Below the pieces are notes generated by a model, which saw nothing but the letters and a program-made list of their open reading frames with translations, did no database searches and was not told the origin of the DNA. The position numbers and the translations under genes are program-made. From Escherichia coli (GTDB lineage: Bacteria > Pseudomonadota > Gammaproteobacteria > Enterobacterales > Enterobacteriaceae): DNA of 64,000 nucleotides. Position 1 is the first letter of the stretch; every line of letters starts with the position of its first letter. This document shows positions 1 through 3,439 of the stretch, in pieces. Location: the NCBI RefSeq assembly GCF_003334315.1, contig NZ_QOWR01000017.1, one strand, 5' to 3'.

Positions 1-137
1 AAGTCGCTGTCGTTCTCAAAATCGGTGGAGCTGCATGACAAAGTCATCGGGCATTATCTGAACATAAAACACTATCAATAAGTTGGAGTCATTACCAGGG
101 AGATTAAATATTTGTCAGTTTATGTCAGTGCGGAAAA

Positions 138-278
138 CTAAAAATAAAACACATAGATCAGATCCATAATTGCCAACAATCCCCAGAGAAAAAGATAAAG
201 CATCAGATGCTCGCGAATATTATTGATGAGATAGTGCAACAGCCGACGCATTAAATACTCCTGTAAAAACGGCCTCAT
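138..278 (-). CDS. yceO: small protein YceO (46 aa)
   Basis: Minus-strand ORF read directly: ATG at 276-278, stop at 138-140, translation [46 protein letters not shown]; below the 60-aa cutoff of the ORF track; matches my recollection of YceO. Confidence 0.55.
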
Positions 279-290
279 TCTGGAGGCCGT
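265..290 (-). terminator. candidate rho-independent terminator downstream of solA
   Basis: 8-bp stem 269-276 / 283-290 (acggcctc / gaggccgt) followed on the minus strand by a T-run (plus aaaa 265-268); immediately after the solA stop at 299-301. Confidence 0.4.
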
Positions 291-298
291 AATGATGA

Positions 299-1417
299 TT
301 ATTGGAAGCGGGAAAGCCTGAATGGCGTCAAATCAAAATCGCTTTTTTTGTCTTGCGCAAAATCGGCAGCTATTTCCCCTAAAACTGACGCAAATTTAAA
401 ACCGTGCCCACTCAGGCCGGTAATGAGCAGTGTATTATCGTGGCCGGGTAGGGTATCGATAATAAAATCTTCGTCAGGCGAATTATCATAGGTGCAGGCA
501 GCGCCGTACAGGCAGCAACCGATACCCGGCAATACATTGCGCAAGAACGGGAAGGCTTCTGACCCATCACTGGCCACTTCCGCAAACGGAACACGTTCAT
601 CCGCTGAATGGATAACCTGGCCTCCGTTATGTTTGCCAATCTTCAACGCGTCGTTTTCTGCCGGAAAACCATAATATTGATCGCCATTGGGCAGTTCACC
701 GGTAAACGCCGGGAATTTATTCTTCACGCTATAGCGGCCATCGGCCTGATACCAGGCAAATACTTTGCGTACGGGCTGGACAGGCAGCTCCGGGAACAGG
801 TCTTTTACCCATGTTCCCGCGCAGACAATCGCTTTTTTCGCCTGATACTCACCGTCAGCCGTTTCAATAGTTACGCCATCATCGTCATGACGAATTGCGG
901 TGACCGGGCAGTTGAACAGTTGCGCACAGCCCGCTTCCTTCGCCAGTTGGATCCAGGTTTTAATCGCCAGTTCGCTGCGCAAAAAACCGGAATCAGTTTC
1001 AAATAAGCCGATGTAGTTGTCCGGGACGCGTATTTCCGGCCAGCGGGCCATAATCCCTTGCGCATCGAGCTTTTCAACGTTGAGTTGCCATTGTTCGGCG
1101 CTGTGGGCGACGTTGGCGAGAAATGTGGAATCAGCCGGGCCAAGGTTAATGACGCCAGAGCGTACAAAAATGGGATCTTCTTCGTTGTGGCGGGAGAGTT
1201 CATCCCACAGCGTTTGCGCGCGGAGGACCAGCGGGACATACTTTTCGCCTTCACCATAAGCATGGCGAATTAATCGCGTATCGCCGTGGTGGCTGCCGTG
1301 TTGATGCGGTGGCATATGGGCGTCGGTCATTAGCACGTTTAAACCGGCGCGGGTTGCATAATACCCGGCGGCAGCGCCTACGGAACCGCTGCCAATAATG
1401 ATGAGATCGTATTTCAT
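299..1417 (-). CDS. solA: N-methyl-L-tryptophan oxidase (FAD-dependent)
   Basis: 372-aa ORF; N-terminal dinucleotide-binding motif [15 protein letters not shown]; recognised sequence and neighbourhood. Confidence 0.93.
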
Positions 1418-1531
1418 TTTTTTCTCTCTGCTCTCATGGTTTAAGCAGAGTAATTAACTGAATGCAGATATACAACCCAGAAATGGTAAAGGCACCGGTG
1501 AGGTGCCTTTTGGGTGGATGGTCATGTCATG

Positions 1532-1786
1532 TTAATGACGCCGATACTCGTTTACCTGGAAATCACCGGATTCAATTTTGGCGATTCCTGCTTCTAATAT
1601 CGAAATAAATTGTCTGGCAACATCAGTGGTTAACCAGAGCGTCTGACCAACTTCAGTCCCTTCCTGCTCGGACTTATTTGGGGTCTGGTAGTGCAAACGC
1701 AACATCAGCGCATCATAGCTATCAACGGTGCTGATGTCCCACCCTACGAGCGGATGAGTCTGAATGACTTCATTATTTTTTTCCAT
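1532..1786 (-). CDS. bssS: biofilm regulator BssS
   Basis: ORF track 1532..1789; start trimmed to second Met (MEKNNEVIQ..., 84 aa). Confidence 0.85.
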   Translation of the reverse strand: MEKNNEVIQTHPLVGWDISTVDSYDALMLRLHYQTPNKSEQEGTEVGQTLWLTTDVARQFISILEAGIAKIESGDFQVNEYRRH

Positions 1787-2031
1787 CATGGCCCCCTAAT
1801 TCGTGTTACTAGACAACGTTATTCGAGGTTCAATGCGTTTTTATCTGAAGCAACTTCAGTATACCAATAAGTAAGGGTATTCACCGAATTTTTAAAGGGG
1901 GAAACAGATAAATTTCTGCTTTTAAGATTTATATGAACAATAAAACAGCATGTCATTCATATTTTTTTAGCATATTGTGCAATTATTTTGAGGAAGTGTA
2001 GAAATTTTGTACTCAAAATTCGTAAGTAAAA

Positions 2032-2063
2032 TAAAAAAGCCGGGGCGACCCGGCAAAAAAAAA
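2032..2063 (-). terminator. rho-independent terminator downstream of dinI
   Basis: GC stem gccggg(2039-2044)/cccggc(2049-2054) flanked by A/T runs on both sides. Confidence 0.5.
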
Positions 2064-2073
2064 TCACTGCATA

Positions 2074-2319
2074 TTATTCGCTGACAAACCAGTCATCGGC
2101 GCTTTCCCACGTTTCCTGGAGAATTTCACTAATGCGCTGTTTATCTTCTTTTGTCGCGCCAATAACCGATAAATTATTCGCTGCGGCATAACGTACCGAT
2201 ACGTGGCCTTCATTATCAGGAAACGCATACTGAATACGGCGGGAAAGTTCGCCAGCCAGGGCGTCAATAGCCCCAGCTGGCAATGGAGAAGTTTTCGCTA
2301 TGGTGACTTCAATTCGCAT
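2074..2319 (-). CDS. dinI: DNA damage-inducible protein I
   Basis: 81-aa protein MRIEVTIAKTSPLPAGAIDALAGELSRRIQ... beginning at the internal ATG (2317-2319) of ORF 2074..2451. Confidence 0.9.
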   Translation of the reverse strand: MRIEVTIAKTSPLPAGAIDALAGELSRRIQYAFPDNEGHVSVRYAAANNLSVIGATKEDKQRISEILQETWESADDWFVSE

Positions 2320-2338
2320 AATAGCCCCCTGTTGAATA

Positions 2339-2358
2339 TACTGGTTATTTATACAGGT
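2339..2358 (-). promoter_or_regulatory. LexA (SOS) box upstream of dinI
   Basis: Minus-strand ACCTGTATAAATAACCAGTA (CTGT-N8-ACAG core) about 20 bp upstream of the dinI start. Confidence 0.8.
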
Positions 2359-2392
2359 AAAATAACCTAATGACAACAGGAAGCTACGATTT

Positions 2393-3439
2393 TTATTGTT
2401 TAACGGACCAGCGTACCGTTTCCCCGGCGAGGAATGGCACCAGCGTGTCATCAGTCAGTGCGATGCTTTCAGCAACCTGTTGCTCTTCACGTACCAGTTC
2501 GATGAATGTGTCGTTGACCGGCAACCCATAGAACTGCGGGCCGTTTACAGAACAGAATGCTTCAAAGTGCTGCAAAGCATTCATTTCTTCAAAGACGGTA
2601 GCGTAACTGCCCAGCGCGGTTGGGGCGTTGAAGCAGCCCGCGCAGCCGCAACTGCTCTCTTTGCGATGACGTGCATGTGGCGCAGAATCCGTACCGAGGA
2701 ATACTCGATTAAAACCGCTGGCGACCAGTTCACGCAATGCCTGTTGGTGAATATTACGTTTGAGGATGGGTAGACAATACAGGTGCGGACGCACGCCTCC
2801 AACCAGCATATGGTTGCGGTTAAACATCAGATGCTGCGGAGTGATGGTGGCAGCCAGCCGTTCATTTCCGTCACGGACATAGTCGGCAGCATCTTTGGTG
2901 GTGATGTGCTCAAAAACGACTTTCAGCGCAGTCAGGCGCTGGCGCAGAGGTTCCATCACGCTTTCTATAAAGCGCGCTTCACGATCAAAAATGTCGATAT
3001 CTGCATGTGTCACTTCACCATGCACCAGTAGCGGCATACCGATTTTTTCCATGCGCTCAAGTACCGGCATGATTGCGTCAATTGACGTCACGCCGTGGCT
3101 GGAGTTAGTGGTTGCGTTTGCCGGGTAAAGTTTTGCAGCGGTGAACACGCCTTCGTTAAATCCGCGCTCCAGCTCATTAGGATCCAGCGAATCTGTTAAA
3201 TAACAGGTCATCAATGGGGTGAAATCGTGCCCGGCAGGTACGGCGTCAAGAATACGCTGGCGATACGCCACGGCAGCCTCAACGGTGGTCACGGGCGGAG
3301 CCAGATTGGGCATTACGATAGCCCGTCCATAAATTTCGCTGGTATATGGCACGACAGTTTTTAACATGTCGCCATCGCGGAGGTGAAGGTGCCAGTCGTC
3401 TGGGCGGCGGATCTTTAATACCTGGGATGGTGCAGTCAT
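2393..3439 (-). CDS. pyrC: dihydroorotase
   Basis: 348-aa ORF; metal-binding HxH motif ([10 protein letters not shown]) near N-terminus. Confidence 0.95.

Follow-up and report, generated by a model that had tools for sequence, protein, structure and literature searches.

The hairpin that follows solA in Escherichia coli is real and conserved. Most likely it is an ordinary hairpin of the terminator type, and the small-protein gene behind it, yceO, is annotated nine codons too long in K-12. We analysed it in a 64,000-nt stretch of E. coli DNA (assembly GCF_003334315.1, contig NZ_QOWR01000017.1), hereafter the window. Taking anatomy, comparative sequence and published transcript data together, we consider it probable that the hairpin is a leaky terminator of solA that a ribosome finishing solA can suppress, that yceO is expressed by read-through, and that its product is the 37-amino-acid protein begun at an ATG beyond the stem rather than the 46-amino-acid protein begun inside it. 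The features are collected in Table 1; adding 1119169 to a window position gives the MG1655 position, at which solA occupies 1119468..1120586 and the annotated yceO CDS (b1058, 46 aa) 1119307..1119447. The DNA of the K-12 derivative MC1061 is identical over a 96-nt aligned stretch.

Table 1 Features of the solA–yceO region in window coordinates.
Feature	Position	Strand	Remarks
solA (N-methyl-L-tryptophan oxidase) CDS	299..1417	minus	ORF list; RefSeq annotation of identical DNA
solA stop TAA	301..299	minus	
solA–hairpin spacer TCATCATT	between TAA 301..299 and 290	minus	8 nt
Hairpin ACGGCCUC-CAGAAU-GAGGCCGU	290..269	minus	5' arm 290..283, loop 282..277, 3' arm 276..269
Short U-tract UUUUU, then ACAGGAG	265..269	minus	U269 doubles as stem closing pair (with A290)
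Hairpin ATG, yceO start in the K-12 MG1655 annotation (b1058, 46 aa)	276..278	minus	
Shine–Dalgarno AGGAG	258..262	minus	6 nt 3' of the hairpin, 6 nt 5' of the conserved ATG
Conserved yceO CDS, 37 aa plus stop	138..251	minus	start ATG 251..249, stop 140..138
46-codon yceO ORF	138..278	minus	ORF list
IS1 element end	1..97		~40 nt past the yceO stop; given as context

A stable hairpin directly follows solA

An earlier note on this DNA had described a 46-aa yceO reading frame whose ATG falls inside a G+C hairpin, placed immediately downstream of the solA stop and followed by a T-run. The sequence confirms this arrangement, with a gap of 8 nt between the stop and the hairpin and a short run of only five U. 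Written as DNA on the minus strand, the hairpin is ACGGCCTC-CAGAAT-GAGGCCGT, followed by TTTT-A, and six of the 8 bp in its stem are G–C pairs. The annotated ATG straddles the loop and the stem: A278 and U277 are the last two loop bases, and G276 opens the 3' arm and pairs with C283. The hairpin folds at −14.5 kcal/mol (z-score of −3.67), a stability equalled by 1 of 200 dinucleotide shuffles, and the same structure is kept when it is folded in a 161-nt context. A competing pairing between the Shine–Dalgarno sequence and the CCUCC of the 5' arm was rejected, as it contributes weak outer pairs in the minimum free energy (MFE) structure only and is absent from the centroid.

The hairpin lies downstream of the co-oriented solA, and on the opposite strand it has no following T-run. 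Our terminator scan, which asks for at least five T in the eight bases after a stem, makes no call at the solA hairpin because the U-run is short and its first U is paired to A290; an intrinsic terminator would be expected to carry some 7–9 nt of U-rich sequence there. An Rfam scan of window positions 1..2500 returned two chance-level matches, neither of them at the hairpin.

The hairpin is conserved across Enterobacteriaceae

Scanning one genome per species gave 80 yceO loci (L011–L090) from more than 25 enterobacterial genera, 76 of them distinct. In 78 loci solA lies directly upstream of yceO, with spacers of 40–133 nt, and 75 of these 78 spacers contain a hairpin whose stem has 6 bp or more, the median z-score of the spacer fold being −2.9. 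Within Escherichia the stem is kept, with six core pairs invariant, and the loop varies among CAGAAT, CAAAAT, AATCAT and TAAATT, all A/T-rich and ending in T. Aligned across genera, the hairpins yield a seven-pair consensus with compensatory changes at five of the seven pairs (for example, C–G in 34 sequences versus U–A in 15, and U–A in 27 versus C–G in 20). The sequences for this alignment were selected with a hairpin finder, a choice that tilts the counts in favour of pairing, and 96% of its cells are paired; double changes occupy 72 cells, against 22.9 ± 6.7 in shuffles. Covariation of the observed strength was reached in none of 500 shuffles, and shifting the 3' partners cut pairing to 28–54%.

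Spacing is conserved on both sides of the helix. From the solA stop to the G+C core the median distance is 9 nt, with 59 of 69 loci at no more than 12 nt, and the end of the core lies 16–32 nt from the yceO start in all loci. The U-content 3' of the stem is more variable: Escherichia, Citrobacter and most Enterobacter-group genera carry 5–8 U directly after the stem, and at least five U in nine bases are found in 51 of the 78 orthologues, with three or fewer in 17.

Klebsiella and Raoultella (L038, L071, L075–L077, L084, L087 and L089) have a different arrangement. Their hairpin, GGCCUC/GAGGCC, lies 19–40 nt upstream of yceO and is preceded by a run of 6–8 A with no U's after it, as if oriented against antisense transcription; a further G+C-rich hairpin separates it from the solA stop.

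The hairpin as a proposed leaky, ribosome-suppressible terminator

We propose that the hairpin at 290..269 would act as a weak, leaky intrinsic terminator ending the solA transcription unit, and that yceO would be the promoter-distal gene of a solA–yceO unit attenuated by this internal terminator. As the hairpin directly precedes the yceO ribosome-binding site, yceO mRNA would have to come from read-through of the hairpin. A ribosome finishing solA would be expected to hinder folding and favour read-through, because the 5' arm starts 8 nt after the stop, and polymerases uncoupled from translation would terminate there. In the read-through mRNA, the refolded hairpin would leave the Shine–Dalgarno sequence and the AUG free.

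A measured precedent exists for the middle step. When Li et al. (2016) shortened the gap between a stop codon and the tR2 terminator from 28 to 5 bp, termination fell from about 90% to below 10%, and in their system tR2 functioned fully only beyond 27 nt (PMC4824070). The 8-nt distance between the solA stop and the hairpin falls inside that range of ribosome repression (PMC4824070), and the 8–9 nt spacing kept across genera fits a terminator that would be leaky when translation of solA keeps step with transcription.

Published transcript data speak to this region in several ways. The Term-seq tables of Adams et al. (2021) hold no 3' end in MG1655 1,119,200–1,119,699, an interval that includes the hairpin; low solA expression or Rho-dependent termination within solA could account for the missing end. 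SMRT-Cappable-seq and TERMITe have no entry for yceO transcript ends. A bicyclomycin-sensitive Rho region listed by Adams et al. (2021) maps to MG1655 1120419 (about window 1250), some 165 nt into solA, with a ratio of 2.7 and a P value of 2e-6 (PMC7815308), and much of the transcription that enters solA in LB may never reach yceO. Chromosomally encoded YceO-SPA has been estimated at at least 10,000-fold below pBAD-induced levels (PMC12529367). Very low YceO in LB and the Rho region in solA are both consistent with a leaky terminator.

In the same neighbourhood, the bssS terminator hairpin (window 1473..1533; GGCACC...GGUGCC, then UUUACCAUUU) lines up with a strong primary Term-seq 3' end, mapped to MG1655 1120652 (window 1483).

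Because 17 of the 78 orthologues have three or fewer U after the stem, and because Klebsiella and Raoultella carry an A-run before their hairpin, termination may be neither the sole nor the universal role of the structure. This leaves some room, in our view a small but not negligible amount, for the hairpin being mainly an RNA-stability or processing element, either a barrier to 3' exonucleases for solA or a 5' stem-loop guarding a processed yceO mRNA; solA and yceO would then be fully co-transcribed and their levels would differ by segmental decay. Such a role would suit a covarying stem that is kept even where the U-tract is absent, the short U-tract of E. coli and the lack of a reported Term-seq 3' end at the hairpin. 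However, U's directly after the stem in 51 of 78 loci are the canonical layout of a terminator, and an exonuclease barrier should leave a stable 3' end too, of which none is reported.

Probable transcription of yceO through the hairpin

Between the hairpin and the conserved yceO start there are only 17 nt, and scans for sigma-70-like sites upstream of yceO on the yceO strand found none. Two sequences were considered by eye as −10 elements, AATAAT at the solA stop and CAGAAT in the loop, and both were rejected for want of a usable −35. The 3' end of solA gave no indication of an embedded element either: synonymous-site variability over its last 24–36 codons was 0.76–0.87, against a mean of 0.77, and an embedded promoter or other element was rejected because synonymous-site entropy is not lowered. 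Given that there is no room for a promoter, no sigma-70-like site and no constraint on the synonymous sites at the solA 3' end, yceO is probably transcribed through the hairpin. The earlier note had held that yceO would be expressed only from solA read-through, and the read-through part of that claim stands as plausible in view of the 17-nt gap, the lack of a promoter-like site and the same layout in 78 loci.

A promoter within the solA 3' end or the hairpin itself, with CAGAAT as its −10, would instead make yceO expression independent of solA, with the hairpin either belonging to the yceO leader or situated just ahead of its start. Two transcriptome papers list yceO among changed genes and not solA, which hints weakly at separate regulation, and the A/T-rich, T-ending loops of Escherichia are in keeping with a −10 element. 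We nevertheless regard a dedicated promoter as quite unlikely: no site passes the sigma-70 scan, inspection finds no acceptable −35 at 16–18 nt upstream of CAGAAT or AATAAT, the last 24–36 solA codons vary at synonymous sites as much as codons elsewhere, and loops outside Escherichia are not −10-like.

yceO very likely starts beyond the hairpin

The conserved start of yceO is very likely the ATG at 251..249, a judgement based on comparison of sequences. This second in-frame ATG, Met10 of the 46-aa form, lies nine codons (27 bases) past the hairpin ATG and 17 nt past the stem, and a read-through RNA reaches it in the order UUUU-A, CAGGAG, UAUUUA, AUG CGU CGG. It is preceded by AGGAG with a 6-nt spacer, for which the predicted anti-Shine–Dalgarno duplex is −6.9 kcal/mol; the hairpin ATG has no Shine–Dalgarno sequence (−1.7 kcal/mol). 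Opening the 30-nt initiation footprint in the read-through transcript is predicted to cost 13.6 kcal/mol at Met10 and 18.0 kcal/mol at the hairpin ATG, making the latter about 4.4 kcal/mol dearer to open. The cost at Met10 is itself fairly high, and a contribution to it comes from pairing, in both MFE and centroid structures at the first ~17 codons of the 37-aa form (window 200..251), between the GCGUCGG that follows the AUG and a CUGAUGC about 45 nt downstream. The AGGAG, invariant or nearly so in Escherichia, and the Met10 ATG both fall on the 3' side of the helix and stay unpaired in the centroid of the 161-nt context, contrary to the earlier suggestion that the start codon and its Shine–Dalgarno sequence are sequestered in the stem.

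Family data place the start at the same position. RefSeq/PGAP gives a 114-nt, 37-aa 'YceO family protein' CDS beginning at Met10 in every PGAP genome examined, the K-12 derivative MC1061 among them, and Pfam PF10968 (DUF2770) matches with an E-value of 3e-22, its model positions 1–36 of 36 falling on residues 10–45 of the 46-aa form; an NCBIfam scan of the 46-aa protein returned no family. The 37-aa start is thus already reflected in current RefSeq and Pfam models. At the Met10 position, 71 of the 76 distinct loci have ATG and the remaining 5 GTG, and the protein begins MRR in 61 of 76. Protein searches likewise retrieved many 37-aa Escherichia entries beginning MRR, and relatives of 50–70% identity carry occasional N-terminal extensions that are unrelated to one another. 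Within the nine codons upstream of Met10, an in-frame stop occurs in 25 of 76 loci, compared with 36 and 24 of the 76 in the two remaining frames; stops at this neutral rate indicate that the reading frame there is not kept open. An in-frame ATG within 27 nt upstream of the conserved start, with no stop between, is nothing unusual, as 19 of the 76 distinct loci have one.

Even within Escherichia the hairpin ATG is not maintained. E. marmotae has a 1-nt insertion (+1) between AGGAG and ATG that puts it out of frame, TTG replaces it in three lineages (E. whittamii, Escherichia sp. E1V33 and SCPM-O-B-8794), and in E. coli S87 a TAA interrupts the frame immediately ahead of Met10. Read as codons, the 3' arm and the U-tract fully account for the 'RPFL' residues of the extension. 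The hairpin ATG is most likely an incidental in-frame ATG and not the true yceO start; it could have arisen where the final U of the loop meets the first G of the 3' arm. The K-12 model of 46 aa would then be an over-extended ORF, and yceO would encode a small membrane protein of 37 aa, translated from the AGGAG at 262..258. The earlier note's choice of ATG 276–278 as the start is thus at odds with Pfam, RefSeq and the 76 distinct loci, and the control of yceO translation by structure that it had drawn from this choice finds no footing in an ATG that is unconserved within the helix and has no Shine–Dalgarno sequence.

Some observations could be read as favouring the hairpin ATG as a real or additional start. 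In most E. coli it shares the frame of Met10 and no stop intervenes (an 81-nt region is identical in 4,065 of 5,414 genomes); E. albertii, Escherichia sp. MOD1-EC7003 and E. coli E69 likewise have it in frame. At the corresponding place in the hairpin, some of the Citrobacter freundii group carry an ATG or GTG in frame, and the K-12 reference retains the 46-aa model. The only experimental peptide from the extension, of 11 residues, has been detected from a pBAD24 clone of the annotated 46-aa ORF (PMC12529367), but this is uninformative about the native start because the construct supplies its own ribosome-binding site. Top-down detection of YceO has been reported with the proteoform unstated (PMC12529367). 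A start used only with the stem open, its 46-aa product coupled to solA translation (for example, by a ribosome that ends at the solA stop 21 nt upstream, unwinds the 5' arm and re-initiates), is very unlikely, given an ATG that is unconserved, has no Shine–Dalgarno sequence and carries the highest opening cost, in a family whose upstream frame takes stops at the neutral rate and whose Pfam and RefSeq models leave the extension out.

For native yceO, our literature search found no start-site profiling, transcription start site, or intact or proteoform mass. The gene is absent from the main text of Weaver et al. (2019), and the supplements of Nakahigashi (2016) have no entry for it.

Sequence variation around yceO

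The A/T-rich stretch near yceO seems to be a repeated target of IS1. In a query spanning 60..420, the first ~37 bases match IS1 transposase loci on many replicons, and the IS1 terminal inverted repeat ends at window 97; native strains have a 260-nt yceO–yceJ spacer. In other strains IS1 lies inside yceJ, or inside yceO, where it yields fusion proteins (P0055 and P0110, ending ...GNDSNLLIVFYVQIMPDDFVMQLHRF).

The 3' half of the coding region also varies. Two metagenome contigs (L006 1660..1773 and L007 944..1057) carry a mosaic yceO allele, identical to E. coli from the end of solA across the hairpin to about codon 20 and strongly diverged in the 3' half (P0062, 73% identity), a pattern that suggests recombination inside the 114-nt gene. 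Many E. coli variants affect the 3' half (138..200), some with frameshifted C-termini (...FLVFRTDIN, ...SFPH) and others with in-frame LY-repeat expansions (MLYLYLFLW, MLYLYLYLFLW) at the CTTTAT/CTTTTT stretch. These C-terminal variants reflect either slippage-prone sequence or assembly errors.

Implications

The main value of these findings is for annotation. Synthetic peptides and expression clones based on K-12 b1058 use the 46-aa YceO, and an incorrect N-terminus has consequences for tagging, for overexpression constructs and for the choice of mass-spectrometry targets. The solA–hairpin–yceO arrangement is also a clean, conserved natural example of a terminator-type hairpin within ribosome reach of a stop codon, and its layout would be usable as a model for how translation sets read-through into a small-protein gene. 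One could go further and see in it a translation-gated switch, with YceO made only under active SolA translation and, in E. coli, re-initiation at the hairpin AUG (a 46-aa proteoform) as a possible addition. We think such a switch unlikely; if it did operate, the linkage of solA and yceO would point to a partnership between an oxidase and a small membrane protein.

Comparison with known systems

YceO is a member of the DUF2770/YceO family, with a full-length Pfam match and a basic N-terminus followed by one hydrophobic segment. In an alignment of 17 YceO sequences, N10, N11, R13, W23 and D30 (37-aa numbering) are invariant, the Asp lying inside the hydrophobic segment. Across Enterobacteriaceae yceO is nearly always immediately downstream of solA, and in Yersinia the spacing is about 1 kb. 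To our knowledge this tight linkage has not been described before, and it may hint at a functional link to SolA.

Operon-internal partial terminators set unequal expression of neighbouring genes, as in rpsU–dnaG–rpoD and at the rplL–rpoB attenuator. The solA hairpin resembles them in lying between two genes of like orientation that leave no space for a promoter, and in having a very scarce distal product; it differs in that co-transcription of solA and yceO is something we infer. The likeness to a stop-proximal terminator suppressed by the ribosome, such as tR2 (PMC4824070), extends to a G+C-rich stem-loop followed by U's, placed 8 nt after a stop codon and with a co-oriented gene next. Compared with the tR2 series (PMC4824070), termination and read-through at the solA hairpin are what we infer, and its U-tract has only five U and is missing in some orthologues.

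With sequestering hairpins, such as RNA thermometers and those of translationally coupled phage genes, the solA hairpin shares an AUG inside a stable stem-loop. In contrast to these systems, the conserved start is a different AUG, which lies with its Shine–Dalgarno sequence outside the helix, and no alternative structure was found. The K-12 gene model matches the over-extension of genes by longest-ORF annotation: it takes the in-frame ATG furthest upstream and so has 46 aa; the family profile and RefSeq take Met10, the one with the Shine–Dalgarno sequence. From that class it does not differ at all; it is a textbook case, and its sole oddity is that the spurious ATG lies inside a terminator-type hairpin.
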